The translations under genes and the position numbers were made by a program. From Moniliella sp. 'wahieum' (Eukaryota), in the NCBI GenBank assembly GCA_003971905.1, contig RSEE01000045.1:434001-498000 (forward strand): a DNA stretch of 64,000 nt. Reading direction: 5' to 3'. Within the stretch, counting starts at the first letter, position 1; the number at the start of each line of letters is the position of its first letter. Shown here piece by piece: positions 13,211 to 57,875 of the stretch. A model generated the notes under the pieces. That model had not been told where the DNA came from. It was given only the letters and a program-made list of their open reading frames with translations, and did not search any database.

Positions 13211-13344
13211 ATGCTCCGCTATCTGCTGAGGGGCTGAAGTGCCTGCCAAGCCAACCAATATACCTTGAATCTTGCATGCATTGTGCCTGCTCCTGGTTGC
13301 ATGATCGATGATCGTAGTTTGGTCGCCCAACCCAGCCGCTCGTG

Positions 13345-13448
13345 GGAGTAGTGACGCAGCGGTTAGCGTGTGAGATTGCAATGAGCTCAAGTGCGGCAGC
13401 CTTGATCGCATCATCTTGAAGTCGTTGGTTCGAGTCCGACCTACTCCT
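13345..13448 (+). tRNA. tRNA-Cys(GCA) with a 31-nt intron (13382-13412)
   Basis: Acceptor stem GGAGTAG/CTACTCC, D arm ACGC..GCGT, anticodon GCA at 13378-13380, T arm GTTGG TTCGAGT CCGAC, U73 discriminator typical of Cys, then a T-run. Confidence 0.92.
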
Positions 13449-13799
13449 ATTTTGTTGCTGAAGTATACGAAGGAACGCCACATTGGGCTGTTGTTGACGC
13501 GACAGCGGACGTTGACGCTGACGTTGGGCGCTCGGGCTGAGCGTTGAGCTGACGGGGTAGAGGCAGTGGCGCCGCCAAACTAAACTGCTTGTTGTGTGCG
13601 TCCAATCACATATGATGTCACAGCCACGAATCTTGATATTGATGGTGTTCAACGTATCATGTCCGCACTCAGCGATTTCAGCTAGTAGGTACCAGGACGG
13701 ACTGGAGGGCGCACTCTCCTGAATATGCAGTGCGCCCGCAGACGCGCAAGCGCCTACGGAGGCGACCAGAAGGTCCAGTCAGGCTGTGGTTGTCGCTCG

Positions 13800-24063: not shown

Positions 24064-24170
24064 GACACTTTAGGGCAGTGGTTACCCCGTTCGCCTGCTA
24101 TGTGTAGCACCTTGCTCCAAGGGCCAGCGAATCCTCTCTGAGGGCGTGAGTTCGAATCTCACAGGTGTCT
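24064..24170 (+). tRNA. tRNA-Ser(GCT) with a 25-nt intron (24101-24125)
   Basis: Acceptor stem GACACTT/AGGTGTC, anticodon stem TTCGC/GCGAA, GCT at 24097-24099, long variable arm, T arm GTGAG TTCGAAT CTCAC, T-run terminator. The intron contains TAGCA, complementary to the anticodon loop. Confidence 0.9.
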
Positions 24171-27385: not shown

Positions 27386-27636
27386 CATATGTTCATCGGA
27401 AGAAGGGTTCACAGACGAGACAGAATGCGACTAGAAAAAGACCAAGTACCTGGAAAGTGTCACGGGGCGACGTCTGAACCACCTTGCACACCCGCCTCCA
27501 CTTCCTTATCGTCGCTATCGCTTCTCGGCTTCTTTCCCTATCTCGTCTATCTCGACTCGTTTTCTCTGTCTCTTTCGCTATTGACTCGGATCGTCTTCCT
27601 ATCAACAAAACCCACAACTATCTTGGTTTCTCCGCT

Positions 27637-28015
27637 CGCGCTCGTCTAAAATCCAAAACACAACACATGGTTTCTCGACTCGGTTTCTCGCCTCGTTTTC
27701 GTCTCGGGTCCATTTTGCCCTTGACCCTCGTCTCGTCTCTCGCCTCGTCCCTCTCGCGCTTGGTCCGCTTTCCTTCCCTTTGACTCGTTTCCCCTTTACT
27801 CTGTAGACCTCTTGGTCTTGCCTTGTTCCCTTTCTCTTCTATAAAACTGCCTGTTCTTAGATCCAATGATGATGGCCCAAGCCGCCGACCATTCTTTCCC
27901 CTTCACCCTTCTTCTAGGCTCCACTTCTAGAAGGAACACCTCTCGCTCAGCTCGCTCGCCTCCCTCGCCCATCGGAGCACACCGCTTTCGCGTCAGCCCT
28001 ACACACGCAACCTCT
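27637..28015 (+). repeat. Dispersed repeat family B, copy 1 (LTR/TE remnant-like)
   Basis: Aligns by eye with 42008-42380. Shared blocks: AAAATCCAAAA, TTTGCCCTTGA, TTGACTCGTTTCCCCTTT, CTGTAGACCT, TTCTCTTCTATAAAAC, AAGCCGCC, CTTCTTCTAGG, TCAGCTCGCT, ATCGGAGC. Confidence 0.8.
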
Positions 28016-30355: not shown

Positions 30356-33230
30356 TTACAAGTCCTCGTGGGCCACCGACGTGGGCGTCTCGACCACATC
30401 CGAGCTGACCGTAGCCGACACAGGGGGAGTAGATGAGATAGAGGCCGCGAGCGGTTGCTCCGTAAGAATTTCCACCACCTCAGGCACCTCCGAGGCGGCC
30501 TTTGTGGCAGAAGCACCGGGGGGCGGAAGCTCCTCCGTAGCCTCAGCCGGCGCAGGCTCAGTCGGCTTGGTCGGCGTTAGATCCTCCGAGCTTGCCTCCT
30601 CCGAGGTCACGGCCGGAACCACCTCCGGTTCAGGAGTAGTCACAGGAACAATAGGGATACTCTTCTCTGCTGCGACCGCAGATGCCGATGCCACCGATGC
30701 CGTTGCGGCCTGTGCAGCGAATGACGCACTTAGTGCGGCTTCTTCCGTCCCCACAGGCTGGACAACACTTGTCGTGCCCACATGGAATTGTGGCTCTTCC
30801 GCAGCTGAGGCAGGTGTCGGCGCTTCAGCGAAGAGAGTCTTAGTGCCGAGCTCTTCCCCAGCCGTCGGCTCGGTCTCCAGGTGAGAGGTCAATCTGCTCC
30901 GCTTGGTGCTCCTTCACTTCACTTTCCACCTCTTCTGCTGCGTCGATGCGGGTAGTGGTGTCAATCTCAGGAGGTGGACCAACGTATAGGTCCTCATCCG
31001 AGTTTTCGGGAACAATCTCCTCCCATCCCAGACTCTCACGAGCTTTAGAAGCCGCATCAAGAAGAGCACGAGGAATCTGGGTCTGTATGTCCTTGGCCGC
31101 ATCTGCGATTCGTTTAAGGGCGTCGAGAGCGAGGACGTGTCGCTTTAACCCCTCTTCGGGAGAAACGACGACTCTTTCGGTTGACGGCGCAGCTCCTCAA
31201 TGCCCACGGCGCCGTACCGGCGGATTGCTTCTGCTGCAGCCGAGTAAAGAAGGCCAGTCCGCTGTTGTAGGTCTGCTACATGCATCACCACATCCGGAGC
31301 AGCCTTGTTGGGGTCCACAACATCCAAGTCAGCCTTGACAGGCTTACCACGGTAGAGGACATCCTCAATTTCGGCGCGATAGAGTTTGGCGCGCATTTGC
31401 ATGTTCAAGTCCCAGCGACCAAAGCGGGTAACCGTCTCGCTATACTTGGCCTGGGACATGAGCCGTTGCTGGAATGATGTTGCAGCATCGACAAATTGCA
31501 GGACATCATCAGCCGACTTGATTGTCGACGCCTTCTCGCCGCCTCGTCAAGTTCGGTGATCACGGACTGGAGCTCCTTGCGCAGCTGCGCACCCTCGGCC
31601 AAGAGCTTGTTTTGCTCGCGCTTAAGCCCTTGCTTGGCAATCTCCACCCTTTCCTCGACCGGACGCGGGTCTTTGGCCGAAGACAAGGCCTCAAACCGCC
31701 GCTCCAAGCGGGCAATTGCTGCACCAGCCTCGCTGTCCACAAAGTCGGCCGTAAGTGTGGCGAAACGAACAGGCAAGTCAGCAATGGTACTGTCTCGCAG
31801 ATTCACAATCCGGTCGGTCCAAGTCTTGTACGACTTGCGAATGTGCTCTGTCAGCCCCACCTCCCACAAGTTAAGACGGTCATAGGTTGTTGCCTCCTCC
31901 TCCTTACGAAGCTCCTCCTTGCGTGCCATCTCTTCTGCTTGCTCGCCCAGAATTTGAGCACGGATCTTGGCAGTCAACGATTCCAGGAACGCGGGGTCGG
32001 GCTCTTGACTCCGGGGTTGCGCCCATGTCGCAGCCTTTTCTGAGACTTGACTGTACCATCCAGAAATGAGGAGGCCGAGAGATTGCAAGCGGGTCGAGGC
32101 AATGGCCTCACGAGTGCGTAGTGCTGATTGACTCTCCCAGAGTTTCGTCCCAAGCGAACGTAGGTGGGGCAGGACATAGGTGGCGTACGTGCGAGCAATT
32201 GTGGGAAACAGACGGTGGACCAATAGCGAGTAAGTGGTTCGGGCCGCCCGCGCCAGATGTGGATGGGCATGAACCATATACGCCTTCCACCCCGCACGAG
32301 CACTCGCATCCACGTGGGAATGTACAGCAGCCACATAGTGGTGCACGTCACGCCAGTACATGTCGTTTGTATCCCAACTCAGTTTTGAGGTTACTTAGGT
32401 GCGGATCGATGGCAGCATGGAACCTAGAAGCATAAGGAGCAGCCCAAGACGAGGCTGCATTGCTAAGGTGTGCTTGAACGGGCGCCACATGGGCACGGTA
32501 GAGCCCACTGCCAGTATGGCGGATCGCCTTGGCCGCTGGAGCAGTGACACGGTATCCGGCCTGGGCAAAAGGCGTAACTGCAGCCCATATGGCGCTGCTC
32601 GTTCATCCAGCGCTTGGGCATAGGGGCCCAAATGTGGACCAAGCACCTCGCTCGTCGAAGCAAGGGTGCGGCAGAGTCCGCGAGGGTCGGCAGCATTGTA
32701 CGTGAATGAAAAGGGGTAGCGGGGCAGGTCCACAGGGACATGTAGAGGGTGTACAGGATGCCCAAGCGCAAGAGGTGGCGTATCAGACTCCTCCCGGCCC
32801 GACGCTGAGGCAGAGGTTCATATCGCGCCTGGGGCTTGGAGGCGGATGACTTGGGGGAGCGGCAGGAGGACGGAGCGCAGTGGCGGCCTGGCGATCCGCA
32901 TCTGCGGCGGGGGGGGAGTGGCGATGGCGCGGAGGATGCGACATGGCGTCGGGAACCGCAACCGGGTGAAGCGGCGGTGGTGGTCAAGCGCTCGTGCGCG
33001 CTCGCAAGTGGCTGCTGGCCGGAGACTGTCGAGTGCGAACCACTGGCGACGGTCACCGTTCATCACACTGGCCCTGCGCCTGGCTACGTCATGGGCCAGC
33101 AGCCACGTGGAAGGAACTGGGGTGATCATGTGATAGGGTTGCACTTCGGTTGCTTCTCTTCCGACTACGACTGGGGCAGAGGCGCTGGCTGATGGCTGCA
33201 GTAGGTGATTGGCACCAGCGGCACAGACCA
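30356..33230 (-). CDS. Large ER-type membrane protein with an N-terminal TM, coiled-coil middle and acidic tail ending HEDL (possibly She10-like)
   Basis: LLRLGILYTLYMSLWTCP..DPRGLC, helical ORF 31405-32361, RFGRWDL..RAKLYRAEIEDVL, final ORF ending SVAHEDL*. Start uncertain; family assignment tentative. Confidence 0.65.
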
Positions 33231-34783
33231 CCGCACGGTCCCGTCCTCATCGAATACTTCTGGCTAGTACCGATGTGGATGATCGATAAATATTGATGAG
33301 GCTGGGCCGATCTGCCAGCCCGCAGGGGAAACAAAATCTCCGTCTACAACACTTGCCGTCAAATGCCTAGCAGCCGTCAGTGTCACTTTCGCCTGCTTCA
33401 ATGGCAACGCTCGTGCTCAGCCTTTTGCGGACTTGACTTTTGAAGCCCGAGGTCTACAGATTTGCGGCCGACAAAAAAAAGGTCCACGGCTTTTTAAGTG
33501 ACGAAGGCTGCTTGCTTGCAACGCCAGAGGAGGCGTGTGGTTCCTTTTGCGTTGCCATTGCTGCTCAAGGCTTCCGTATTGAGTGAACTAAACAGAGTAC
33601 CCTGCTCATTGACGGTCGAATGTGAGCAGCGTGTATAGTCAAGGATGCACGCGACATGGTGCTTGCGCCTGGCCAACATGATAGCTTGAGCGCGATCAAC
33701 GTCGCTCTCGGAACGCATGTTTATTGCCCAGGTTAGTGCGCCCCTTGCACCTCACTGTGATTAGGCTCTCGTCTCATATAAAGGCTGGCGAGTGTATCGC
33801 CACCACCTTCCTCGTCCAGATTCTGCACTTCCTTTTTTGGCATGAGGTTTAACACTGCAATCCTACTTTCATGAAGGGAATTAAGATCACAGCGTGGTCG
33901 GTGTCACTGGGCGCCGACGACTGAGAGAACAATCGTTAGCCTCTTTCCCCCCTACCAAGCGCCCACGGGCCCACAGTCATATGTGCAAACCCCGCAGGGC
34001 AAAGGCAACCATTCTATATGATGTTGTGCTTCGTTACATTGGTCTCTTTTAGGAGTGATGGCTGCGGTGCGCAATGTTGGGAAGAGAGACCACAGCCTCT
34101 CGAGAAGGGAAGCTCTAGCCGACGGGCAACGCAACGAGCGGGTGGGGAGTTGGCTAGCGACGCTGCGCACATGGGCTCATACTTTCCGGGGAATATTAGG
34201 TGAATGGAGAGGATATGTTTCTAAAGTGAGGTGTAGAAGTAGCCGCTATGCGAGAGTCATGCGAAAAGGGTCGAGTCTTACATAGCCGAGGTACCGTCCG
34301 GGCGGTAAGAGAGGTATATATGTTGGTGCTGTCTCAACCATCGGGGAAGGAGGGTGTGATAGAGTCCTCTTCACCCCATCTGCACCCACTAGTCACTGTA
34401 GCTGCCTCTCCATCGCAATATCCAGATCCAATATAGGGGAGGCATTTCAAACAGTGAGCGTCAGGTCATACGGTGTATGTTGATATGCGGGCAACTAACC
34501 TCTCTCTACTCTCCGAGTTTTTTTGTTGTCCCCAACTCTGAACGCACTACATCTAGTCTTTAACATAGAGACGCAAACACTTATAAGCCAGTCATGCGGG
34601 TCATGGAGACCGCTGGTAGTAACCAAAGAGCACTCAGCCACAGGATAAATAATACAGAACAAAAATGCGTATGGATAGTAGGTGGGTATACCTCCGTAAT
34701 CAGGGCGATCAGCTCGTACCGCCATCACATAAGAAGCCAAGACTCAAAAGCCCACCCTTGCCTCCTCATCGCCTGCCTTCTCC

Positions 34784-35998
34784 TCAGGCATCAGATGCCG
34801 CTGTGAAGCAGCTGAACGTTCGTCCATGTGCATGACTTGGGTCTCGACCGTAAATGGGACAACGCCCATGTTGTGTCTGTGGGAGGGGTTGGACGGAAAT
34901 GGGTAATGGAACTGTTCTCACAACCCTTGATCCCCGAAGTATTTTCCAACTCAACTTGATCAGCGATGACGTGGGTGCTATATCCACCTGGATCGCCGAC
35001 AGGCCTTCCTTCGCTCTCCCACTGCCCGAGTTCGAAAAAGAGGATAGGACACCTTTCAAGTCCATGTTTCCTCCCAGCTTCAGCAGCACGAGACGGTACG
35101 CACAAATTGAGGTGCAGGCGTTGGCTAGGGAGCCGTTGATGTCGGAATAAAGCCAGTTTTTGCTAAAGAAGAGCGCATTCAGCAAATTGACGCCCAGGGC
35201 ACAGCAAAAGTAAATCAATCCGTCAGCCATGAGACGTTGCTGGACCACCTTGGTGAGCATTGTTCGTTTGCTCAGCTTGAAGTTCCAATGGGCATCCAAA
35301 AAGAATGACCCAAAGGCGAGCAATGTAATGATCGTATCGTAGACGATGTTGGTGACATAGTAGACCCAGGGAACCTCATGACCGGGCATAGCGAACACAC
35401 ACACACCATGTTAAGAGCATGAGGACGAAACCAGTTATTAAGGGCCATATTGACCGAGAGTTGGGCAGACCACAGGATAGCGACGATGACCATGATGTAT
35501 CGGTTTCGGCGCCACATTGCCCAGGTGCGCACGGAAAAAATGAAGGATGCGGAAGAAGTAATTACGCTACCAAGAAAGATGGAAGCACGACCCACATTGT
35601 AACACTCTTTGGTCGTCCAGGACTTACTCCGGACAACATGGATGTAGAGTCCCAAGCAAATTGGGGCAGTGTAACGTGCGACAATAAAGGCTGGCGTGAC
35701 GAGCCATTTGAATCCCCGTTTGTAGTACATTTGCAGTTCAGCAGGAAATGTAAGTAGGATGCTGCCATGAGGATACCAGTTAGCGCGGGTTGGGCACAAG
35801 AGAGATGAGCCGAGAGGAGTGAGCGAGGGGAGATAGAGAAGCAAATACGTACTCCCACAGCAGGAAAGCTAGGGCAGCCGAGATGTACATCCCTCGCACC
35901 AGGTCCTGCTCCAAAATGGCAGTGGGGATAAGAGGGGGCAGCTGTACCCTTACTCCGGGTGGGGCAGGCAGCAGCAATTGGGATGCGTTGTCCGCCAT
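34784..35998 (-). CDS. DUF6533-type multi-pass membrane protein
   Basis: Splicing intron about 35852-35762 gives ALAFLLWDILLTFPAELQMYY, then FIVARY, VRTWAMW, YDTIITLL, LMADGLIYF and ICAYRLVL, the typical pattern of this basidiomycete family. Confidence 0.78.
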
Positions 35999-36199
35999 GG
36001 TTGGAGGTGATGCAGGTGGTTGGAGGTGATGAAGAGAGCGAGAGCGGGAGGTGGGGATGCTGGTGCTGAGGGTTGGAAAGAGACTAAGAGCCTTGTGAAG
36101 CTATAAGGCCCAAAGGCCCAAAAGAAACGCATCGTAACGCTAACGCGAATTCTCCTCATACAGGAAACATATGTGCAGGCACAATAGAGACAATAGAGG

Positions 36200-36710
36200 C
36201 GAAATCTCGTTGAAATCGTTGATCAGTATCAGTACACCAGTACACAGCAGTAAAACGTAAAGACAGTAATCGAGTAATCGAGCTAATCCTCAACAGTTTC
36301 TCGGTTCTCAGTCAGGCTCAGCGCGCGCTCAGCCAGCCACGGAACGTGGAACGTTCAGCACGTTCAGCGGATATGTCACTAGAGCACAGTGCCCTCTCAC
36401 TCGGTACCGGGGTACCAATGAGTAACTCAATACTCAGACATACTCAGCACTCTCAGTACTGAACGTAACTCGGTTCAGACGTTCTGGCCTCAGGGAGTAC
36501 GTCTGCGTACTGAGTCGGAGTCATCAGATCTCAGACCCTGTGCGACTCAATGTTTCAGCGATCTTTCGATCATCGATCCCAACGCCTCAACGATCTCGAC
36601 GTATGCCTATGTATAGTCACCGGTCACCGCACTCACCAACTGAGTGCTCTGATCGGCAGCCTAAGTGCCTGAGCCAAGGCGTGGGTGACCGATGTGACCG
36701 GTGACCGGTT
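36200..36710. repeat. Cluster of [TNA][4-bp palindrome] micro-arrays
   Basis: TCA-gcgc-gcgc-TCA at 36318-36331, tcga-TCA-tcga at 36566-36576, TCA-ccgg-TCA at 36617-36626, TGA-ccgg-TGA-ccgg at 36695-36708. Confidence 0.8.
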
Positions 36711-39689
36711 CAAGTAGAGCCGCTCGTTAGCCGCCCTGATCCATTATACCCATTGGCGCCACACCACCACGCACCATGCATGATTAGTGAGAGACCGAGT
36801 AACGGGGTATTATGCAAGTACCAAGTACTGGATGCTTTCCTGTACTGTCGGGACTGGGTACTGGCGCCCGGACGCAGACTATGCCACCCTTTCCCCACAC
36901 CTGTCACTGCTGGAGCCCATCACTTGATCCGTTTGGATTGAGCCTTGCGCGTGCGATGGACCCATTGGTAGCGGCTCGCGCGATAGGAGTTGGAGATGAT
37001 ATATTGTGAGAGTTATCGGTGACTGGGTGGCTGGGCCCGCGTCCGGCCTTCCGCCATGCTGCGGGAGGGACAGTGGAACGGGTTGTTGGACCCGCGGCGC
37101 CGCCTCTCGGCGCAGCACATGTCCCGCCTAGCCACGTGGCATCGAAGACTGTGATACACTGATGGGCTCTGGGCCACTGGGGCCAAGAGCGCAGCTTCAA
37201 GCTGCTACGCACCAAGCTCTTGCAGCATTTCCAAAAGCGGCTACTCCTACCAATACGTACATTCCATTTTTGCTTCAAGCGTCGCCTGTCACACTAGTCA
37301 CACATTTCACACCACATGGGGCGGAGAGGCTGCTCCACACAGAACCCTATCACCAGATCACTAGCTTTCTCGCACAATGCATAATAACTTCATGCATGTC
37401 TCATGTTTCCCTAGCACTATGAGTCAGGTCCTCACTGGCGTAACTCTGTGGCACTATAGCTTTCCATTAAACTTCTAATTAAAAGCTGCCAATCTCGACC
37501 TTCTTCAAAAGATTCATCGACACACCACACCGAAGTATTTACAGAACGCCTCCATCCCCGCAAAGCCATTTCTTTGCAATCCACAAGCCACATCCTACCA
37601 CACCAGCATTCTCTCTTACATATTAATGCACACAAGCGCTATTTGAAGATGATATTATCGATCGATATCTCGATTATCCTTGCATCATGCATCATGAATC
37701 GAATCAATCACTAATCTCTTCATTGTGCAGGTAAGAATTGGCCGAACGTATACACCTTCTCGGCCCGATTTTTTCGAGTATTTTATATCTTGTCGATATA
37801 TCATGGTTTAAACCAATGGGACGAAGGTGTGCGGACGGGCACGGGCTCCCGGGTGATTCCGCCCGGGTTCCGTTCCTCGTCCGGCGGGTTCCGCTCTTCC
37901 TTCTTGTCATCCATCTGTTTACACTTCTGTCTGTCTGTCTGTCTGCGCTGCACCCGCACAGAATTTACCTTCCTTTCACCACCATCATGCATCATGGCTT
38001 CAAGTTTTTCATCCGTATCCACTTGCGCGGCATCCCCGCTTGGAGACGAATGGCGGCTGCCAGAGGGTCCAAACCAGCATCGCCGGACCTGACCTACCCT
38101 CAGGCCTCAGCCTCACCAGTGAGCTCACTGCTGAGGCTCAGCTGAGCGCGTTGAGCGATCAGTGAGCGAGATGATTCATGATCGGTGATCGATGATACAG
38201 AAGGACCGAGAAATGGCCGAAGTCCAACGATTGCTGCCGTCTTCTACCCACCAAAAAGTGTGCAACCCTACTGCTCCCCGACCTGCACGTGACGGGGGGG
38301 GCTGCGCCAACTATCGGGCATATGACAGAGTCGCGTGGACGCGTCCCTCCACCCACTTAAAATGCCCCCTACCCGTACTCACCGCCGGTGCCCCCATTGC
38401 GGCACCAACGACCACACTGGCACACGGTGCCCCTTCAATCCACTCCCACGTTTGTGCCCCCACGGCCGTCGACCTGGCTACAAGGCTGCCGCGGAGCGGT
38501 GGAGCAAGGAGAGACGTGGAAAGCAATTGGGTCTTTGCGACAAAAATAAGGTGGGGGGGGGAAGGACAAGAAGAGGGGGGGAAGACAAGAAGAGAGGGGG
38601 GACAAAGGGGATTGGTGGAAGGATGGAGTAAGGATGATCGATGGTCCAGAGGTGGCGGGCTCGATCCATGTAACGTGAATTACGACGACCCTGTCGCAGG
38701 CGGGCCCTGCCAGGGGCTCACTCAGGTTGGTGGGGTACAGTCCCTTACGTGAAAGACGGCTCACGGTAGTGTCGAGCTTGGGCTATCCGAGCGAGGAGAG
38801 AAGCCTTTGGGCGTGAAGCCGAGGCGGCTGCACGCGTGGCAAGGCTGCGTATACGCCGGCTGGAGGGTAGTAACGTGCCTGTTGAAGCCTCCGGGGCTGA
38901 GAGACGGGTAGATGCAGTGGAGCGGACAGACACTGCCAGGGCTGAGGCATGATGGCAGTGGTGTCAAAGGAACCCACGCGACATGCTGTGGTATGGAGAA
39001 CCGACGCGGCTGATGGAAGGCTCACGCGACTGGGCCGATGGAAAGTTGAAGGACGAGGTTGGATGATGAAGATGATGCAGCTACTAAGTGGAGACGAGAG
39101 GTTGCCTGTATTACTGAATCATTGGCTGGAAACGTTCAGGAGTTGGACAGGAAAGCGGGAAGGACGAGAACGGAAGGTGGGAAAGGATCCCCACCATCGA
39201 GGATGCTGACTGTTGGTTGGCCCCTTTTTAGTAACCCCCTTCTGTCTAAGCCCCATCGCACTGGGATAGATGTTGACAGAGCGAAGCAGACGAAGCTGCT
39301 ACAGAGTGCGACTTTTGGGAGCACTCGCGATCTATGATGAGCTGCAAAGCAGCCTTCAGACAGGCGTGAAGGCAAAGGGGTGACCACAAGTCTATACAAG
39401 CATCTGAAGGAAAGCAGGCAGAGAGAAGAAGGGAGATGGAGCGAGCAAGGCGTGCGCGGCCTGCGAGCGGAACTCTTTCGACCGGCTAAGCGAGAGCGTC
39501 ACCGATTCACTGAGGGGTGCAGGGGAGGCCTAGCACTACCACCCCAACGAAGCAAGCGGAGGCTGCGAAGGGACTAAGAATATCATCCGATAGCACTTCC
39601 TCGTAGTCCATGGAGAGACTACACCTAGTACAGAAAACTATGCCTCTCGCAGTGAAGCGCATTCTCAGAACACAAACACGCCACAGTCG

Positions 39690-40310
39690 CCGTCACAGTC
39701 AATTAGTCACTAGTCCCTAGTGGCTGCTTCAATGTCACATGTCACGTGTCACTAGATCACATGTCACATGTCAGATCGACTGTGGCGTCGGCGCCAACGG
39801 CCCCAGGGGTTACCGGTTAGGGATTAATGCATGTTAATGCTTAACCGGTTAGGCCGAAGGCCTAAGGCCGTTACGGTATAAACGGTGGCAATAAAAACGA
39901 CCCCCCTTTCACGGACTCCGTCTGCTTCGAGCGGCCCAGGATGCAGGATCTCATGCTAAGCTTTCATGCTTTAACGTTTAATGTTTAACGTTTAACGTTT
40001 AACCTAGAGCAGGAAGCGCTTCAAGCTTCTGAGATATAGTAACCATCCCTATAGAGTAAACACTAAGCATTAGTCACTAGTACCGAGTAAGTCACTAATG
40101 ACCTAGTGACGCTCACTAGTCACTATTGGTAACTGTGCGGGGAAATTATAAAGGGTATAATCAGTAACCGATTACGGTAACCGACAACCCTCCCTAAAAC
40201 TCAGAGCGGCCGAGGCCTGCTGAGCCAACAGGCTGGGGCTCAGCTTGAGGCCGGAGTGCCTACTGAGCCAGGCCCTGAGCGCTGAGAGTCTCAGCGGCTC
40301 AGGACCGCGC
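39690..40310. repeat. Densest cluster of [TNA][4-bp palindrome] micro-arrays
   Basis: Arrays at 39735-39777, 39810-39819, 39842-39869, 39971-40001 and 40113-40122 (written out in findings). Confidence 0.85.
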
Positions 40311-40369
40311 CAGGTCGAGCCTTCCCAGCTATACGAACCCCCAAACTGAAGCCGCGAGTGCTCGTTGTC

Positions 40370-40635
40370 GAGCCACCCGGTGGCTCGTGTGTTTGGTGGC
40401 CAAAAGGACCCTACGTCCTGAGCTCCTTAGGCCTAGGAGCTGCGTCATTTTCCTGCTTCTATCCTCCCTTTGTTCCTCAGCTACTAACGCACCTTGGTGG
40501 TGAGACCGGCTGTTTGATGTTCCTCTGTATAGGCATTGTTTTTGGTTCGTCGCTTAGACCACTGCAATATTTACCAATTAGACATCTCCACTAGTGCGAT
40601 TGTATAACCGTCGGGGACCATCCGGACTTCAGGGT
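40370..40635 (+). repeat. Dispersed repeat family A, copy 3
   Basis: GCCACCCGGTGGCTCGTGTG...GACCGGCTGTTTGATGTTCCTCTGTA...GCTTAGACCAC...AGTGCGATTG...GGGGACCATCCGGAC. Confidence 0.7.
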
Positions 40636-42007
40636 CTCATTATAGAGGAACAGCTCTTTTCGCTCATCCAGAGTGAGTACCAGTGAGCAGCGCCGGTGAT
40701 CGCCCGGCAGCACTCACTGTACTCACTATTCCCATACCCTTCGTCCTGCGTATTTCGTCAGCCACTGATGAGCGCCACTCCGCACTGTAATATGTACTCT
40801 GTAACCATCAGCGCCTTCTGAAATCGGGCTAGGCCGAAGCCCTCCTCCTTCCGTCTCGTTTCCCTACAGAACGATTCACCTCTTCGAACGTGCTTCTCAG
40901 TTGGCCCAGGATCAGTTCAGCCAATACCAAACTATTAACCATTCATCAGACAGAGGCCTATAAGGTGGCCATCAAAGCCAAAGGCGACATGTTTTCGCGA
41001 TTTTCTGCAGTACCTATTATATACATGTTATTCCCAACCGACGTTCTCATTCGACCAAAAGATCGCGAAAATGGTCGGCGAAAAGACACGAGACGCGTGT
41101 ACTACTACCCATGGATATGTTCTCCCAAAAGCATTTCTCGCGTGTCAATTCAACGAGGTGAGTGACTTGTTCTATACGGTGTTTTGTTGGATTTGCGCTA
41201 TTCATATTGGCACTCCCCTCCCCTGTCATAGGGGGCTAATCCCACAGGACCCGACAAGGAGGAAACTAAGGAGAACACCATGAGGGGAATGGGGAAAATC
41301 GTTTGAGGAGTGAAGCCACAGCGTTAGCCGTTGAAAATAAGGAAAAAGCGAAGACTAAAAAGGAGTTTTAATTGGGGGATACGACGAAAACGATGGAAGA
41401 GAACCAAGAATAGAGCATTCGTCTCTTCTTTATTTACGCACCCCATCTGTCCAGCCGCAACGCTCTACGGATGCACACTACATCAGAACGCCAGTGATAA
41501 TATTAGGAGGGCCACACTGCCAGGGAGATTCGACCCGACAACACCGCTCCCCGCCGGCAAATGACGAGGGGAGAAAAGAGGACAGAATGGATACAAGAAA
41601 GAGGAAGAGAAGAGGAGAGGAGAGGAGAGAGATGAGAGGAGAGGTGAGGAGATTTATCCACGCGTTTGGCATCAACATTTAGTTATTCCATCCTTCCATC
41701 AGGATGCTACACGATAGGAGGCGCCAGCGTGCTTCCGTTCGATTCGACTCCCCCCCCCCCCCCCCCCCTCCTGGCTCTACACGAGAGCTCCGGTGCCTCG
41801 AATCAAACCTTTTGAAGTAGTAGGTATAGTAAGCAGGAACACTTGCCCAAAGACATGTTGATCACTGGATGCAGAAGAGTTCGGGGACCACTTCGGGAGT
41901 CCGTCTCCCTGAATATAGCAGGCTATATAGCCCTTATGTGCCAGAAAATGTGGCAATCTAATTGTGGTCACCAGAATGTGGACAAGCGACACTACATCCT
42001 ACCGGCT

Positions 42008-42380
42008 TGCGCTCGACGAAAAATCCAAAAGACTATATGCATGTTTTTCCACTCGGGTTTTAGTCTCGTTTCTTGTCTAGGATCCGCTTTGCCCTTGATC
42101 CTCGCCTCGTCTCTCACTTCGAGCCTCTTGTGCTTGGTCCTCACTTTTTCTCCTTGACTCGTTTCCCCTTTCGCTGTAGACCTGTTGTTCTTTCCTTTTT
42201 TATTGTTCCCCTTCTCTTCTATAAAACCTATGCCCAATTCGGATGGCCTAAGCCGCCCACCCTTCTTTTCCTCTCACTCTTCTTCTAGGTGACTCCACTC
42301 TACAAGAACCACCTTTCCGATCAGCTCGCTTGCCCTCTTTCTTCTATCGGAGCTCCCCGCTTGCTCGTCCGACCCCTAAC
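42008..42380 (+). repeat. Dispersed repeat family B, copy 2
   Basis: Diverged match to 27637-28015. Minus-strand ORFs 27618-27866 and 41992-42237 share FIEEKGN..KGETSQ because of this DNA similarity. Confidence 0.8.
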
Positions 42381-42879
42381 GTGAACCTTGTCCTTGCAGA
42401 CACTGCCTGGCTCTGTCCGACGAACAATAATGCACCAGCATCTCTCCGGCTAGCATCCCATCGCACTGTCCACTCTTGACTCGTCCACGTTTGTAACCTT
42501 TTTTTGGTACCTTGGCATGCTCCACATGATCCCACAAATTTGGACCACTCTCTTCCTTCTCCCTTTCCTTATTAATATTGACTACGCGCATGAGACGAGG
42601 AGTGCACTCCTATTTCGGGGGTTCCCTTGACGCCGAAAAAGGACGGGACTTGGTCGGCCACGCATCCTTATCGAGGATGTTCTTGCTGCCATGCGTGTCG
42701 GCTAACGAATTGTGACTCTCCGAAGGTGAATCTCTATACTGAATACCTGTATCATCGACCGATGGGGCTTACAAGGAAACGCTGAGCCTCAACCGACCTC
42801 CCAAAGGAATCGCGAGCAGAGCAGGACCCTCTGGTACCCTTCATCCGTTCCCATATACCCAAGGCAGCGTGTGTGGCTA

Positions 42880-43300
42880 CCAATGAACGTGGTGGGCACC
42901 CGAGCGGTGAACCATATCCATTGTGACTCGGTATTTTATTCTTTCCAGATCCCAAACATCTTGCTCGCCCCGTCTTGATGGCATAGTACTCTGGCATCGT
43001 CGGAATCAAAGGGAAGAAGGGTTCTTGGGAGCGTCCCAGATACTTGGCGTTATTTTGTTGCATTCAGTTGTTTTCCAACAGTTTAAGCAGCCCCTTCTCT
43101 CTCGGGTTCCAATGGTGCACATTGCTCTCGTGTACCACCCTCCGTACGCTAACTTTGCCTCTCGTGTTCCCGAGGAGTCTTCCAACGTGTGGTCCACCTC
43201 CATTCCTGATCCTCCGAATGATCCAGGTCAGATCCCAAGGGTAATAACCTTTCTCGGGATCATCGTGAAGCTTCTGTAGTTTTGCTGAGGGCGATGACGT
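42880..43300 (-). mobile_element. Possible decayed Ty3/gypsy pol fragment
   Basis: Stop-interrupted minus-strand text WNPREKGLLKLL...LGRSQEPFFPLIPTMP...KNKI loosely resembles the pre-RT segment of basidiomycete gypsy elements as I recall it. It lies next to repeat B. Confidence 0.3.
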
Positions 43301-44526
43301 ACTTGATGAACACTGCTGTCCGTCCCCTCGGCTTGACAGCTGATCGCGCTAGGCCCCTCCGCAAATTGCCCACGGATGCATCCTTTATGCCTTGGACAAG
43401 TCCTACTCGATGTCATGTTCTGGGAAAAGGTGGTATTCGTGTACAGCGTTCAGGTGTGGCGGAATATCATGACACAAAACCAACAAGGAGTGAGCCAAAC
43501 ACTGCCGCTTTTGAGAATATTTGGCCATGCATCAGGCGACGAGAACTCCGAGCGCAATATCTGTTGCGCGTAACATTCTTTGTGAGCTGAGTATCGTCTT
43601 CGTACCACATACAATCCATCCAGCTATTCGTTGACAACATTGTAGCCAAATCTCTTGCCGAGAAGCCCGGCAGTCTGCATAAGATCCCCGAGATTGACCT
43701 TCTGGCTGCGGAACAATAAGGAGATCACAGAAGCGAAAAAAAAAAAACATCAGAGTTCCTAGTAGGCTTGAGGAGGGACAGAAGGGATCTTGGCCAAACG
43801 TACGAGTCCCCCCACCCCCGGTAGCTCAACATTCCCCCGGGCCAAAGAACCAAAGGTGACTTCTCCATATAAACCAAGAAACGTTAAGAAGGGACCAATG
43901 AAACCAGAACAAAGGGGAAGGGCCAAATAGAATTGCTGACGGTCTCCATGATCTCCCCTTTTATACAGAGAATCCCGAAGAATACGATCTGCGTTGCTTG
44001 TGTTGCCAACACCGCTTGTTAGCTCCTTTAACCGGAAAGGATATATTGCCCTGTCTCTCTTCGTTGTGTAATAATACCGTGCGATGCGGGAATGCCATCC
44101 CTCGCTGCTGTGGCTCTGGCTGCAGCAGATGATACATCACGTGACGTGCCATGCGGCGAGGCGGAGATACGGTGTTGCACCGACCTCACCCTGTCAGATC
44201 TCACCGCCTCCCCGAGACAGCATGACGCATGCGTCGCGCGCCGGCCACTGCCCCCGTGGCAGCCATCCGTTGGAAGCTGCTCGAAGCGTGGCGGGCGGCG
44301 GTACCCCGGCACGGGGGCAGTGGACTGGCCGCCACCCCGCCAGTGCTCTTCTGCCGCCGTTCGGGGCTTCCCGCACTGGGCCTTCGGCCACAGTCGATTG
44401 CACCCGCTCCTCCTTATTTCCTCCAGCGCACACGACAGCCACCGCATCCCCGTCAGTGTCACCACCTCTACCACCACCACCACCACTCTCGCACCGCGTA
44501 TACCCACACACCATCGCACTCCTATC

Positions 44527-45797: not shown

Positions 45798-46163
45798 GTC
45801 CTCCCCCGACCTGATTTGCCCTCTATTGTAGCCCTTTCCCCTTTATCCCTAACTCACAACGGGCGATGTCTATTCTTGGGATCTCGTGGCTCTCCATTGC
45901 CTCCGTCCTTCCAATCCCTTTCAATCCGGATCTGCCCCCACCTCCCCTCAATTCCCTTGTATGCATCTTCCCAGTTTCTGTACTCTTGGCATGTGACCAC
46001 CCGACGGACAATGACTAGCATCGCCCCCTTCTCACCTCTGCAACGAGGACATAGTATACTTATAGAACAGGATAGAACAGGAAGCTCACGGCAAAGTGGA
46101 TCATATTACTTGGGCGGGGGTGAGCAGAGATCAGCCCGACACGGGAGGGGGAAGCTACCCGAT

Positions 46164-46658
46164 TGATCACATAAGGGCGCGTGCCACACCCGCTCACACC
46201 CCAAGGATCGTGTTTATCCTCTGGTCGAATGCTTCGATCCGGATCGGCATCTCGGGCGTGTAGAACGGGTTGCGCATCACTGTATCCGCATACGCTTCGT
46301 AGCATCCTTGAAGCAGCGTCGGCGGCGCTGGTGCAGCACGGGCACCGGCACCGCATCCGCCCCGGGCCGCGGGGTGAATGACAAACTTGACGCCCGTCGG
46401 GTCGCCAGCAGGCCAAATCAAAGTCCGACGCTTGGAGTTGGGTCATGCCCCCGTCCCCTCCTGTCGCAGCAGCAGCAGCGTGTGTGGCGCGCGCCTTCTG
46501 CGCTGCCGCTTCGTCCGCGCAAGACGCGCCGTGATGGCGTGCACGCCATGCAATGTGCCAGCCAAGACGAGGGCGTCGTTGGATGACAGGTGCGGCTGCG
46601 GTCGCCCACCGGTGTAGATCAGCCCACCGGCCTTGTTGATGATCCAGAGTGTTGCCAT
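46164..46658 (-). CDS. TRS23: TRAPP complex subunit Trs23/TRAPPC4 (sybindin-like)
   Basis: MATLWIINKAGGLIY...LSSNDALVLAGTLHGVHAIT, PTGVKFVI, YEAYADTVMRNPFYTPEMPIRIEAFD. 3' end approximate. Confidence 0.9.
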
Positions 46659-46835
46659 GGCGCAGCGGGGGAAGGAGAGATGGTGGTAGTGGCTGGGCAG
46701 GCAGACGGCTGAGCGCTGAGTGTGGTGGAGTGGAGGCGGCGGCGAAGGGCCAAGCCAAGGCTACAACGTGGCAATGGGTCGCAGAACGAATGCGTAAGCG
46801 CCTATTGTTAAGCACACCCGGACCCTCAATCACTT

Positions 46836-46917
46836 CGGTACGTGGTGTGGTATCATGCTTCCTTTGGGTATAGCTCCCCCATGGAAGAGGTCCTCGGTTC
46901 AATCCCGGGCGTACCCC
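46836..46917 (+). tRNA. tRNA-Pro(TGG) with an intron
   Basis: CGGTACG TGGTGTGGTATCATG CTTCC TT TGG G [intron] T GGAAG AGGTC CTCGGTTCAATCCCGGG CGTACCC C, then a T-run. The first base and D-loop deviate, probably through indel errors. Confidence 0.82.
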
Positions 46918-47773
46918 TCCTTTTTGTTTTTTTTTCGGGTGCGCCACTGGAACCACACCAGGGCTTAGCAGTCACAGCCATTGCGCCCGCTGTGGGTAAT
47001 AATTGCTCACACGTCCTGCGGCTGCGAGGCTAAGCGGTTCTCGCGCCCGGCCCAGCACCGACAGCTGATGTGGGAACGGGGCGGAAGCAGCAATAAGGGA
47101 ATGTGGGACGGAGGATACACCGCCGCTGATGTCATGAAGAATGATGCGATGATACGGGTGGTTTCTATGGGCCTTGGCCGAGACGATGAGCGTGGCGGTC
47201 GACAGTCCCAAATGCGCGCTACCCCTGAACCTCCTAGGCCCCGTGCTGGGATCTGGGAACGGATCCGGGACGCATGAACCATGGGGGAGCATGGGCGGCG
47301 CTGCGGTGGAAGGGGCTGAAGATGGAGATTTCACAGCCTGCGCCCTAGTGTCATGGGGTGCGTGGCAAAGACGCGGTGAAGCGTCGCGCTGCGAGCATCT
47401 GGGATTGCCGCGCATCATGTCTATAGCAGGTCGTAGGCCGCGCCGGTGAGGGATGGGGACGAGGACAGCGGGACAGAGCTGATTGCGATCAGACAGTAAA
47501 TCTGTGCCGGGGGGCGGTGCGAAATGCGCGTCTAGTACTATTACAGTGCGGCGTGCAAAACACAGTGTGTGTCTCTATGTTGATCGGCTGACAGGGTTGG
47601 AGATGGAATCGGACCTGGGCAGATTCAATGGGCTACGTATGCTGTGGGCGAGAGGGATGCTGGTGGAGGGGACAATAAGGGGGGAAGGGTGTCGTCGCCA
47701 TAGTATACATGTGGCAAGGGGGGTGCTGCCGCGCGGCAGGGGAGGGAGATGGGAGGTGTTGGGGATATAGCGG

Positions 47774-50498
47774 CTACAGGCTGCGGCCCATGTCACGCAG
47801 GACGGTGCGCTGCTTCTGGAGCTGCATCGGCCGGAAGCCGTGGAAGGCCATGGTGAACGTGCCTCCGCCCGCGCTGAGGGCGCGCAGGCGCGACGAGTAC
47901 GCCACCAGGTTGCTTAGCGGCGCCCGCGCCAGAATCACCGACTTGTCGCCCGATTGCGACAGCGTATCCCCGGCCGCAAGCGAGGTGTGGATGAGCTCGG
48001 GGGCAGGTAGACCTGGTCCAGCGCCTTGGCCGTCCCCACCGCCCCGTCACCGCCCGCCACCTGGGCAATGTCAACCACTTCGCCCTGCTGCGCGCCCGTC
48101 AGGTCGCCCACCACTGCCCCCACCGCCCCCGAGGGGAGCGCGACGGTGACGTCCATGTAGGGCTCGAGCAGAACCGGCTCGCCCTTCTGCAGAGCAGAGC
48201 GGATGGCACGGCTGACACACGCCTGCAGCGCAGCTGGCGGTGTCATTTCCTCCCCAAACGTCTCGACGCTGTGCACACGCACCTTGACCTTCACCACCGC
48301 ACTCCCACTCAGCGGCCCACGCAGCAGAGCCGCACGCACTCCCGCCCGAAGCGCGCGTTCGACCCGTGCCACAGGAGTCAGCGTCCAGCTCATCGGCTTC
48401 GTCGGCGGGGTCTTCGCTGGTTTCGGCCAAGTTGGCATCAGTAAGATCAACCTCCACCACGTTTTCACTGCTGCGAGCGGCGGCGGCGGCCGTGGCCTCG
48501 TCTACGTCCTCGGGTTCGGGCAGCGGTTCAATCTCCACCACACACGCCGCCTTCATGGGACGCCCGCCGATCGGACGGTCGAGAGCTGAGCCTGCTGGAC
48601 CGGCTGCTGGATCGTCTCACGGTACGAAACGCGAATGTCACCCAACGAAGCACGTGCCTTGAACTCGTCGCGTAACCTGCCCCTGGCAATGTCCAGGTGC
48701 AGTTCGCCCATGCCACTCAGGGTCGACTGGCCACTGCCCGCACCGTCGCCCGAGATGGACTGGTCATCGAGCCTGAGGGAAGGATCGGTCCGTACCAACA
48801 TTGCCAAGGCCGTCTGCAAGTCCTTTTCATCCGCCTTGCCACGCGGTGCAATCGACATGCTAAACACGGGCGGCGGGATGGTGATACGGGGCAGCTCAAG
48901 GCTACGCAGCGCCATCGGAGGCGCTTGGGCGTGGGACTTCTTGGATCCTTTGACCGCCAGCGCTTGTTTCTCATCAATCAATGTGTCTCCCGTCGCTGTC
49001 TCCGACAGGCCGACCACCACGCCAATTTGACCGGCTTGCAACGAATTCACTTCCACGTAGGCATCGGCATAGGGAAGGAAGATCTTGGACATTCGTTCGC
49101 GTGTCTGGGTACGGGTGTTGAAGAGGGTGCTGGACGACAGCAGCGTGCCACTGTACACGCGCACAAACGTTTGCACACCCATCTGCGGGGTCCAAACCAC
49201 CTTGAACGCCAACAGGCTGAGATAGGGATCGGTACGGGCGACAACGAATGACTCCCGGGCAGGAGGTTGGGTCGCCACCGCATTTCGTGCAGCGCGTTTC
49301 TCTTTGGCCGACTTGGGCGCCTCGAGCAGCGGAAGGCCCGTTGCCTGCACCGGGGGACGGTCGGCGGGAGAAGGAAGAAAGTCGGCAATACCATCCAACA
49401 AGGGCTGGATGCCAATGTTGCGTGCACCCGAGCCGCAAAAAACGGGAACAATGCTGCCGGTCAACACTTGGCGCCGAATGGCCCGGCGTAGGCTCGGTTC
49501 CGACACGCCCATGCTGTCCATCTCATCTGCCATCAGCATCCTCCAGCAACTCCTCATCCACCCAGCCACCGTTTCGACCAGCGCAGCGCGCGCCTCGGAC
49601 GCCGACGCATACGCCACGTCGTCCTCGTGCAGCGGCGCACGGCTTACCACCTCCCCAGCCGGCCCAGCGAACGTCAACCGCTCCATCCGCATCACATCCA
49701 CCACTCCCGTCAGCGAGACATCCATGCCGGTCGTGGTATAATCAGGGAGGATGAGGGCAACCGGTCGTGGGTGAAGGCCTTTGGCCACAAAGGAGATGAG
49801 GCTGCGCCGCAACGAGCTACCGGGACGATCGAGCTTGTTGACAAAGAGTAGGTGGGACTTGACCCCGTACCGTTGCGCTTGCGCCCACACGCCTTCCGTT
49901 TGTGCCTCGGCGCCCTCGACACCATCGAGGATGACCACCGAGCCATCCACCACCCGCACCGCGCGCTCCACCTCAATGGTAAAATCAATGTGGCCCGGGG
50001 TGTCGACGAGACTGATCGCGGCGCGGCCGCCGCCTTCTCGCGACCAAAACACCGGACCCACGGCAGCGCTTTGGATGGTGATGCCCCTTTCGCGCTCGGC
50101 CTCGAGGAAATCGGTGATGGTGCTGCCCTTGTCCACGTCGCCGGGGGCGCCAGCGGCAGAGATGGCGCCCATGGGGCGCTGGGTCAAGTGCAAGATGCGT
50201 TCGGTGCACGTCGTTTTGCCAGCATCAATGTGGGCTATGATGCTAATGTTGCGAATCTCGTCGGGCTTTTCGATGCGCAGCTTGCGGTCTGCCACGGCCT
50301 GGGCCGGGCGGACGTGGTGAGGGCGCGGAGGGAGACAGGGACAGAGACGGCGCGAGCGCTGGGCACGCGCAGGTGGCGAGGGCGGAAGGGCGAGCACGCG
50401 CGGAGCGATGGTGGTGGTGAGGTCGGCGGCGGGGCCAGTGGGGGCCCCGCATGGCGGCGGAGGCTCACGCAGGTGGGCAGGCGCGGGAGGATGCGCAT
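47774..50498 (-). CDS. MEF2: Mitochondrial ribosome-releasing factor 2 (EF-G2mt)
   Basis: Presequence MRILPRLP.., IRNISIIAHIDAGKTT, GDVDKGSTITDFLEAERERGITIQSA, DTPGHIDF, NKLD, LSGMGELHLDI, VSYRET, LLEPYM, and ending FTMAFHGF...GRSL*. Confidence 0.9.
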
Positions 50499-50679
50499 GG
50501 AGGCAGAGACGGAAGGTGGGCTGCACTTGGTAAACAACACATCCGTTCTTCCTGCGGCGGAAGAGGCAGCCAGAACAAGCCGGCTTCAACTTTCAAACCA
50601 GCTGCCTCGACCCATCAACATCAACCCCATCAACATCATCCCCATCGACCCCACCCACACCTCGCCGCGCTTGGCTGCC

Positions 50680-56569: not shown

Positions 56570-57235
56570 GGCTGAGATGGCTCGGCTGGCTCGGGACTGC
56601 TCGGGGGCTCAGGCTGAGCGTACTGAGTGTGCACTGAGCTGAGTGCTGAGCTCAGCGCGCTCAGCGCTCACCAGTTGCTCAGTTGTATCAGGGATGCATG
56701 ATGCATGACGGTTAGAACTCAAATTGGCTTTGTTCTTCGTCCACGTAACCGCGTAACCACGTACCACCTGTCACAGTCACGTGTCACACACTAAAGTGCC
56801 CTCTAGTGCGCTCGGACCCCCATGGGGCGCAAGGCCAGTGTTATCGATTATCTCGGGCGGCTTGGACCCGGAGGGATGTACAGACAGCAGCTATGTTTTG
56901 CTCCGGCGGCGTTTGGCAACAATGGCAAGACCCTAGCCTGAGCGTACTCAGACTGAGCACGGACAGTACTGGCATGGTCGATAGTATGTGCCAAAACCAC
57001 CGGAGAGGACAGCGTACATTCTTGCCGTGTGGCATGCCGCGGCACCTTCCCAAACGCAAGCGCACACTTGCGTGTCCTGTGGTCCAAATCCTTTCTAGTC
57101 CATATTAGTCTTTTGGTGCGCACATTCGTTTAACGTTGAACGTTCAGTTGAACGTTGATGGAGAAATGCTTCAGAAGACTTGACTAGCTTTTAGATGTGG
57201 CATAAGGCATGTGACATGTGACATGTGACATGAGA
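56570..57235. repeat. Cluster of [TNA][4-bp palindrome] micro-arrays between the kinase and Amt genes
   Basis: TCA-gcgcgc-TCA-gcgc-TCA near 56652-56670, tgca-TGA-tgca-TGA at 56695-56708, TTA-acgt-TGA-acgt-TCA at 57130-57146, (catg-TGA)3-catg at 57208-57232. Confidence 0.8.
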
Positions 57236-57362
57236 GCCGTATCTAGCTGCTGCTGGCCAGGGCTCCTTTCAGTGACCTGCCGTGCCATCCAGCCACCGCC
57301 CACCGCCCATCCTGGCAACCCCCCGGCCCCACACTGGCACCTCCTGCCACCCCCCGGCAACC

Positions 57363-57389
57363 GATAAGCATACCAGCATCGTGCTTATC
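57363..57389. promoter_or_regulatory. Paired GATAAG/CTTATC elements upstream of the ammonium transporter (candidate nitrogen-regulatory GATA sites)
   Basis: GATAAG at 57363-57368 and CTTATC at 57384-57389, with further TTATC at 56841 and 56848. Fungal Amt/Mep genes are established GATA-factor targets. Confidence 0.45.
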
Positions 57390-57875
57390 TCAGATCTCAC
57401 TGTGCTCAGTGCCACTAGGTCACTCCCCCGCTTATTAGCGCTTACCTCTTCTCCTCCCCCCCCCTTGGGGGCATTTTCGCTTCGGCAGTGATATTCCTAG
57501 CAGAGTGCCAGTCTGCCCCACTTCTCTGCGTCGCTGCCCCTCTCAGATATCATTAATCATTGTCCTCGATATCGATCATCGGCCATTGTTGATACTGGTA
57601 CTACTGAGATTGGCCCTCTCCATCGGAACTGCACTCGTCTGTCTTACTACTTACTTCTCATCGATCTCAGTACATCAGTACTCGTGTACCAGCACACCAT
57701 CTTCCGCTGCAGCAGCCCAGCACGAATCCCCCGCTGAAAAAGACACCAGTAGCGAGTCAGCTATATAGGCAGCCCCCCGAGTTGTCGTCCATCCGGACGA
57801 GCCGCCTATATTATACCCCCTTGTGATCACTCTCATTTCCTTCCGGATCTTCGCCCCCCCTCCCCAATCCACTCG

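Follow-up and report, generated by a model that had tools for sequence, protein, structure and literature searches.

Seven-base-pair repeats centred on T-N-A in non-coding DNA of a Moniliella contig are accumulated scars of one stereotyped mutational event, possibly transposon excision

Hairpin-capped flanks are established for the hAT, Transib and MULE transposons and for RAG, and it is presumed that host nucleases open such hairpins, which are then joined with footprints, as described in the available part of PMC5499845. The footprints of Ac/Ds are palindromic copies of the flanking DNA, according to the accessible sections of PMC4561436. The present work concerns a stretch of 64,000 nucleotides (nt) of Moniliella sp. 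'wahieum' (assembly GCA_003971905.1, contig RSEE01000045.1, positions 434,001 to 498,000), which is referred to below as the window and numbered from its first letter. Its non-coding DNA contains heptamers composed of T-N-A and a palindrome of 4 base pairs (bp), repeated in register, and this heptamer grammar is the product of accumulated scars that one stereotyped kind of mutation has left at T-N-A sites. The scars resemble the flank-hairpin footprints of Ac/Ds, other hAT elements, Transib and MULE, as well as V(D)J coding joints. As far as the available parts of the sources go, both copies of the duplication remain in those systems as they do here, and a short flank-templated palindrome stands at the junction, which is explained there by the off-centre opening of the hairpin. 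The scars of the window differ from these footprints in that the target is 7 bp long and centred on TNA, the scar is almost invariant, and its density is sufficient for the formation of tandem arrays. Furthermore, no element was seen in the 64-kb window.

Among basidiomycete DNA transposons, 7-bp duplications are given for hAT7 of rusts and Kyakuja of Laccaria in the available part of Kojima 2025 (PMC12730594). Both share with the present case the host phylum and the length of the duplication, which is deduced here from the scars alone, and hAT7 belongs to a superfamily with flank-hairpin chemistry. They differ in that no TNA-centred preference, footprints or occurrence in Ustilaginomycotina are given in that part of the text. 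The duplication made by the Cryptococcus T1 element is not stated in the available part of PMC9942834, and the corresponding part of PMC8721813 contains no usable hAT target consensus. PIF/Harbinger elements and Tourist miniature inverted-repeat transposable elements such as mPing have in common with the scars the T-N-A target with its free middle base. However, the part of PMC4561436 that is available describes a 3-bp duplication and a precise excision through complementary 3-nt 5' overhangs, which leaves no flank-templated palindromes behind. Excisions also scar the genome at many places in rice, as seen in the comparison of Asian with African rice (PMC4423477). The footprints described in the available part of that study are heterogeneous and are not reported to seed tandem repeats, whereas the scars of the window are uniform and form arrays.

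The initial annotation, which concerned positions 39690 to 40310, had described the grammar of T-N-A and 4-bp palindromes and had interpreted it as the accumulated scars of one recurrent enzymatic event. All four arrays quoted from this interval were found in the sequence, and the sites quoted from elsewhere in the window exist as well (800-813, 1088-1104, 9986-9996, 13836, 14092, 15713, 36566 and 37681). Two of the quoted cores, CGTG and ATGT, are not palindromes, each being one substitution away from CATG and ACGT, respectively, and GAA is not a T-N-A. The predicted enrichment over dinucleotide-shuffled sequence was clearly visible, as a palindromic core occurs in 57 of the 184 T.A-N4-T.A 10-mers, compared with a mean of 7.7 ± 2.8 and a maximum of 17 in 200 shuffles. 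Palindromic cores make up 31% in the T.A frame and 2.3-7.5% in the other 15 a.b frames. The recurrence of 5-mers reaches its maximum at lag 7 (331, against 279 at lag 6 and 216 at lag 8). The lag-7 autocorrelation of TNA, which had been proposed as a further check, was also observed: the number of T.A pairs is highest at this lag (184, against 147 and 139 at lags 6 and 8), and 109 pairs are expected if the sites are independent. Fourteen of the 26 period-7 rows of Tandem Repeats Finder (TRF) rotate to T-N-A plus a 4-bp palindrome when the consensus units are read by eye; a random heptamer would fit this form about 2.7% of the time. The earlier count of 12 of the 16 possible cores, with no all-A/T palindrome among them, has to be corrected, because 14 of the 16 are present, including ATAT (twice) and TTAA (once), and only AATT and TATA gave none. 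The 14 cores share geometry only, which agrees with the view that the arrays are copies neither of one repeat nor of one binding site. The suggested parallel with the Ustilago ATTCACG arrays did not hold, since no rotation of ATTCACG gives T-N-A followed by a palindromic tetramer (a comparison based on the letters of the unit only).

The structure of the individual unit departs from the dyad symmetry that had been ascribed to the TNA-NNNN-TNA 10-mer. The two TNA copies agree in their middle base N in 43 cases and have complementary bases there in 9, while neither holds in 5; because N is directly repeated, the 10-mer is not a true palindrome. Moreover, the core takes its sequence from the flank: the dinucleotide CD stands after the second TNA, or D'C' before the first one, in 34 of the 43 same-N 10-mers, against approximately 12% expected by chance. 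Therefore, the elementary object is a 12-mer, TNACD-D'C'-TNACD, where D'C' is the reverse complement of CD. When 5-mers recurring at lag 7 were counted on both strands, the reverse-complement spacer was present in 44 of the 73 cases of the T.A.. type and in 33 of the 589 cases of other 5-mers (5.6%, close to chance). The remaining 15 classes of first and third base yielded 0 to 4 conforming 12-mers each. Block shuffles led to an expectation of 0.15-0.2 conforming 12-mers for the 44 observed, which places the rule far beyond chance and supports the idea of one recurrent event. The negative control consisted of 966 kb of unrelated metagenome DNA, comprising 80 loci that match the MEF2-like open reading frame (ORF) of the window at 33-42% identity and were taken as bacterial EF-G genes. 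It contained 15 conforming 12-mers among 337, approximately the chance level, compared with 44 of 73 in the window.

The length of the mirrored part is fixed. A mirror of 2 nt occurs in these 44 of 73 cases, while a mirror of 1 nt was found in 9 of 23 (1 in 4 by chance), of 3 nt in 1 of 24 and of 4 nt in none of 36. Two nucleotides is the typical length of P nucleotides, the palindromic additions at opened hairpins. The first copy requires both the T and the A, and the few variants lacking one of them resemble later substitutions. Both orientations of the scar are about equally common, as expected from the symmetry of the TNA target. The event can be written as the conversion of XY-TNA-CD to XY-TNACD-D'C'-TNACD, with a gain of 7 bp, of which 5 are copied directly and 2 as the reverse complement. 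It regenerates its own TNA target and so can extend itself, a property that the initial annotation had recognized. At the 30 conforming lag-7 loci, the runs of identity measure 5 nt (seven loci), 6 nt (seven), 7 nt (eight), 8 nt (one), 9 nt (three) and 10 nt (one), with one locus each at 13, 14 and 18 nt. Fourteen of these 30 loci contain less than two full units; thus a plain 7-bp tandem duplication of an existing heptamer cannot be their origin.

The window contains 37 scar loci. The +7 form alone is present at 28 of them, the +8 form alone at four and the +9 form alone at three, and two loci carry two forms; counted by class, 30 loci have the +7 form, five the +8 form and four the +9 form. 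The +8 form consists of Y-TNACD, D'C' and Y-TNACD, and the +9 form of XY-TNACD, D'C' and XY-TNACD, each with a shuffle expectation of 0.05. In both, the T of TNA is always located 5 nt from the mirror point. A duplicated block of 8 nt had no match in the window. As the mirror point is fixed 2 nt past TNA and the other boundary lies at most 2 nt before it, the largest block is NN-TNA-NN, a symmetric 7 bp. A 1-nt mirror with a 1-nt loss at generic sites was found at about one locus, and simple 5-bp duplications number 8, against roughly 6 by chance (hand estimate).

The distribution of the loci is also non-uniform. Of the 2645 T.A sites, 463 fall within the 15.1 kb covered by Pfam-supported ORFs, and none of the 37 loci does (p about 8e-4); this avoidance fits selection against +7 frameshifts. 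The loci are clustered, with 14 at 36.3-40.7 kb, 8 at 56.6-57.6 kb, 5 at 0.8-1.2 kb and 4 at 13.3-14.1 kb, and none were found in other stretches, including the Pfam-hit-free stretches at 28-36 kb and 40.8-44 kb. Local re-insertion and a preference for open chromatin would both fit such clustering. When the nine constraints of the 12-mer are relaxed, 44 exact matches (0.2 expected) are followed by 89 with one deviation (7.6 expected) and 211 with two (109 expected). This decay series suggests long-continued activity accompanied by neutral erosion.

The event may be caused by a cut-and-paste transposon that inserts and excises repeatedly, duplicates 7 bp of its target and leaves hairpin-capped flanks and 2-nt P nucleotides, an explanation to which we assign about an even chance. 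The transposon itself, the hairpins and the handling of the overhangs are what we infer from the form of the scars. Such an element would duplicate a 7-bp target centred on TNA (NN-TNA-NN) and would be excised via hairpin-capped flanks, in the manner of hAT, Transib, MULE and RAG. Each flank hairpin would be nicked 2 nt from its tip, giving the self-complementary 4-nt 3' overhangs CDD'C' and Y'X'XY. End joining that keeps one overhang and removes the other whole would generate the dominant +7 scar in either orientation. With the second overhang shortened by just 3 or 2 nt, +8 and +9 scars would result, and the retention of both overhangs would give a +11 product. Since a scar holds two TNA targets, it would grow into a 7-bp array as further events strike it. 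If one of the two bases after a TNA is substituted, the next event on that TNA would mirror the new base, and mirrored substitutions of this kind may account for neighbouring units with the same TNA and different cores, such as TCA-CATG beside TCA-CTAG at 39735-39755.

Two properties expected of transposon excision are visible in the scars. TNACD is directly repeated at 30 loci, as the copies of a target duplication would be at an empty site, which is consistent with a duplication of 7 bp that has lost 0-2 nt from one of its sides. The spacer behaves as P nucleotides do, being the reverse complement of the adjoining 2 nt in 44/73 cases against 33/589. The footprint of a TNA-targeting transposon had been mentioned earlier as an alternative. 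A transposon is indeed the best candidate, but a footprint of transposon-end residues between 3-bp TNA duplications does not fit, because 34 of the 43 cores match the flank and the duplicated block reaches 7 bp.

Several observations weigh against excision of a transposon as the source of the scars. The Pfam search of 151 ORFs of the window revealed no transposase and no reverse transcriptase, and neither a hAT nor a KDZ transposase domain was found among them. A scan of the window for 10-bp exact inverted ends returned nothing convincing, and NN-TNA-NN duplications around inverted ends were limited in the window to 2 pairs at the chance level. The ancestral unscarred state was not seen; the sole dispersed repeat pair of the window contains one 7-bp indel, which does not follow the TNA rule. 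Of 94 excisions in rice, a mere 8 left a simple footprint and most were accompanied by deletions or filler, according to the available part of PMC4423477. The scars are so uniform that their source could be a concerted enzymatic reaction and not end joining. Only 9 loci, those of the +8 and +9 classes, define the 7-bp ceiling, the double-mirror +11 product is represented by 1 ambiguous case (36318) among 3 candidates, and both 7-bp copies are kept perfectly around T.A at approximately 4 loci, which is not clearly above chance. The density of scars is high, with 37 exact loci per 64 kb. In addition, at 13 of the 27 single-event loci the bases before T and after A are complementary, against 25% expected (hand tally), an excess that the transposon model does not predict. 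Microhomology or a preference for certain targets could be behind it, or different repair routes could arrive at one product. At about 5 of the 27 loci the symmetry extends over the full 7-mer (hand tally). Because of the points listed above, cutting without an element and template switching are retained as rival explanations.

The first of these rivals assumes a host-encoded or domesticated transposase-like nuclease that cuts at TNA and produces the same hairpin-type intermediate with no element inserted. That no element or transposase was found in the window is in its favour, and it agrees with the great uniformity of the scars, in which the 2-nt mirror (44/73) stands out and other mirror lengths are at chance, and with the dense clustering of the loci in gene-flanking DNA. 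However, a duplicated block presupposes a pair of staggered cuts, 5-7 nt from each other, and their fill-in, which is the natural signature of transposon integration, and one nuclease break at TNA is not by itself enough to leave a TNACD copy on both ends. We consider element-free cutting rather unlikely. Its more specific form, in which a TNA-specific hairpin-forming nuclease kept by the host, possibly a domesticated transposase, adds flank-templated 7-bp units near genes, is regarded as distinctly unlikely.

Template switching, by snap-back synthesis or polymerase-theta-like end joining, would start from a nick or break beside TNA and comprise its extension by 5 nt, the copying of 2 nt of the opposite strand and the return to the original template. 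The product can be drawn as such a forward-back-forward path of the polymerase, and the pairing of the base before T with the base after A (13/27 in the hand tally) is readable as microhomology aiding the return switch. This route needs a TNA-specific nick, which it does not explain, and leaves the constant 2-nt mirror and the 7-nt limit of the block unaccounted for. Templated insertions made by repair or replication switching are heterogeneous in length, which also counts against it. Template switching is regarded as an improbable source of the scars.

Microsatellite slippage biased to hairpin-forming, reverse-complement-symmetric heptamers is consistent with the existence of arrays of up to about 5 units, and slippage may add or remove units once an array is present. 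As the origin of the grammar it is very improbable: 14 of the 30 loci contain less than two units, T.A-centred units alone are enriched although units in the G.C, C.G and A.T frames are equally symmetric, and the minimal form is 5+2 and not 7+7. A regulatory code, that is, selected arrays of sites for dimeric proteins, agrees with the location of the loci in gene-flanking DNA. The 14 cores have, however, only geometry in common, N is repeated directly and not as its complement, as a dyad-symmetric protein-binding site would have it, the core is dictated by the adjoining sequence, and the smooth decay series points to neutral relics. An assembly artefact, in turn, would neither avoid ORFs nor obey a flank-templated rule. 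These two possibilities, even when taken together, deserve very little credence.

The mechanism favoured by the initial annotation was a 4-nt staggered cut within the palindromic core by a dimeric enzyme such as topoisomerase II, followed by the rejoining of the self-complementary ends. It is in keeping with the 4-bp palindromic cores and with a unit that restores its own target. Nevertheless, the core is templated by the flank (34/43) and the palindrome was absent before the event; as the palindrome is created by the event itself, a 4-nt stagger within it presupposes what the event makes. Fill-in of such a cut would duplicate 4 bp instead of 5+2, no lag-4 excess is present, N is directly repeated so that the 10-mer is not a dyad, and 14 of the 30 loci contain less than two units. 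At trapped topoisomerase II, a staggered break is filled in and rejoined to give a short tandem duplication, expected to be 2-4 bp long. These duplications have no mirrored part and no TNA requirement, whereas the scars described here combine 5 directly copied with 2 mirrored bases. This mechanism had to be given up as extremely improbable. An equally negligible probability attaches to a PIF/Harbinger-type footprint, in which two bases of each inverted transposon end would remain between the copies of a 3-bp TNA duplication and likewise produce TNA-palindrome-TNA, because, even though the target duplication would be TNA, and TCA and TGA work for mPing, the core tracks the flank (34/43) and no fixed transposon end, 14 different cores occur, the duplicated block is 5-7 bp long, and the excision of mPing is precise with 3-nt overhangs (PMC4561436, available part).

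The positions of the arrays, scar loci and tRNA genes are collected in Table 1.

Table 1. Scar arrays, single scars, scar clusters and tRNA features of the window (positions counted from its first letter).
Feature	Position	Strand	Remarks
Cluster of 5 loci	802-1156		includes +9 scar 872-887 and +8 scar 1143-1156
tRNA-Leu	9561-9644	-	ARAGORN
Cluster of 4 loci	13302-14082		first locus 30 bp upstream of tRNA gene 13345-13448
tRNA gene, intron-containing	13345-13448	+	Rfam
tRNA gene, intron-containing	24064-24170	+	Rfam
Cluster of 9 exact scar loci	36266-38109		starts 36266, 36353, 36524, 36617, 36695, 37683, 37983, 38098
Candidate double-mirror (+11) site	36318		within the 36266-38109 cluster
Decayed period-7 array GTCACAG TCAATTA GTCACTA GTCCCTA GT	39692-39721		TRF: period 7, 4.3 copies, 76% matches
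Composite array TCA-CATG, TCA-CGTG, TCA-CTAG, A, TCA-CATG, TCA-CATG, TCA-GATC	39732-39777		units read from 39735
Single exact scar GGTTA-CC-GGTTA	39808-39819	-	minus strand reads TAACC-GG-TAACC; lag-7 run exactly 5
Perfect 10-bp palindrome TAACCGGTTA	39842-39851		start of the 39842-39870 array
TTA-GGCC, GAA-GGCC, TAA-GGCC	39849-39870		three T-N-A-GGCC units bearing two substitutions
TTA-ACGT array, 4.7 units	39971-40003	+	one unit mutated to ATGT; ends in TTAAC; lag-7 run 14 at 39983-40003
Single exact scar TCACT-AG-TCACT	40113-40124	+	reads TCACTAGTCACT
One-off relic TGAGC-GC-TGAGA	40276-40287	+	last base mismatches the rule
+9 variant AGTGAGT-AC-AGTGAGT (minus-strand reading)	40712-40727	-	just beyond 39690-40310
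tRNA-like copy	about 46842-46925	+	79% identity to tRNA-Leu; T run behind
Dense cluster of 8 loci	56650-57561		upstream of ammonium-transporter ORFs
8-bp array CAGCGCGT x 3.6	63450-63478		iterated +8 variant (Y-TNACD + 2-nt mirror)

The decayed array that opens the interval is a relic of TCA-CTAG units, and the composite array which follows it contains exact scars at 39733-39744 and 39757-39773. In the +9 variant at 40712-40727, the whole 7-bp block NN-TNA-NN is present twice with the 2-nt mirror between the copies. The iterated +8 array near the end of the window indicates that variant scars, too, can seed arrays. Between two scars, at 39825-39841, a repeat with a period of 10 bp (TTAATGCATG-TTAATGC) was observed, which fits neither the 5+2 rule nor the +8 and +9 variants. 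Scars are located upstream of two tRNA genes, at distances of 30 bp (scar 13302) and about 135 bp (scar 46708).

The gene content places the window in a fungal context. An ORF of 679 amino acids (aa) at 48556-50592 on the minus strand is a homologue of the mitochondrial elongation factor EF-G2/MEF2, with 49-53% identity to proteins of Ustilago, Sporisorium, Pseudozyma, Tilletia and Malassezia and 86% identity to its closest protein relative. The source of the window is an Ustilaginomycotina fungus, related to the smuts. Genes recognized by Pfam flank both sides and encode an FAA hydrolase, an RBM22-like protein, symplekin, galactokinase, DnaJ, a RabGAP, a kinase, an ammonium transporter and an MFS transporter. 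The quoted arrays of 39690-40310 fall within a gene-poor stretch of 11 kb (33000-44000), in which no Pfam match was obtained among the ORFs tested and the ORFs showed no codon-position GC contrast. Its GC content is about 0.51, against 0.55-0.67 elsewhere in the window. An index of other genomes contained no look-alike of the DNA with the arrays. An ORF of 303 aa at 46063-46971 is probably not a gene, because the tRNA-like copy sits inside it.

Other repeated sequences of the window were recorded as well. Self-BLAST revealed a sole dispersed repeat, at 27634-27994 and 42005-42369, of approximately 360-400 bp, 75% identical and in the same orientation. No coding signal was detected in either copy of the pair, which may represent a solo long terminal repeat or an old non-coding element. 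A block of 40 bp, 95% identical, is present at 59518-59557 and 38263-38301 on opposite strands, in two unrelated gene-flanking regions, and is composed of a C run, the E-box-like GTCACGTG and 25 more bases; the two copies may represent a common regulatory element or pieces of a small repeat. A purine-rich microsatellite of the AGAGG type at 41572-41652 and a run of 19 C at 41750-41768 are both unrelated to the TNA rule.

A full-text literature search turned up no account of a palindromic 7-bp repeat grammar centred on TNA, or of scars of this type, in Ustilaginomycotina. The P-nucleotide footprint as such is already known. What is new is the TNA-centred 7-bp target, the near-invariance of the scar and the extent to which it gives rise to heptamer arrays. 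If excision of a transposon is the cause, this genome would be a natural record of thousands of excisions, each with nearly the same resolution, from which the target NN-TNA-NN, the 2-nt offset of hairpin opening and the end-joining choice of a fungal lineage would be readable without experiment. It would also provide a concrete route from a single excision scar to a tandem 7-bp array, making the birth of a microsatellite directly testable between strains. A visible share of gene-flanking DNA would then be scar-derived, which bears on promoter evolution, and the palindromes of the scars would mimic binding sites and hence matter for motif-finding in such genomes. If no element is responsible, the scars would reveal an undescribed site-specific DNA-writing activity. 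In the case of a nuclease kept by the host, cells would possess a built-in generator of promoter-proximal repeat variation, and with it an undescribed route to microsatellites de novo.

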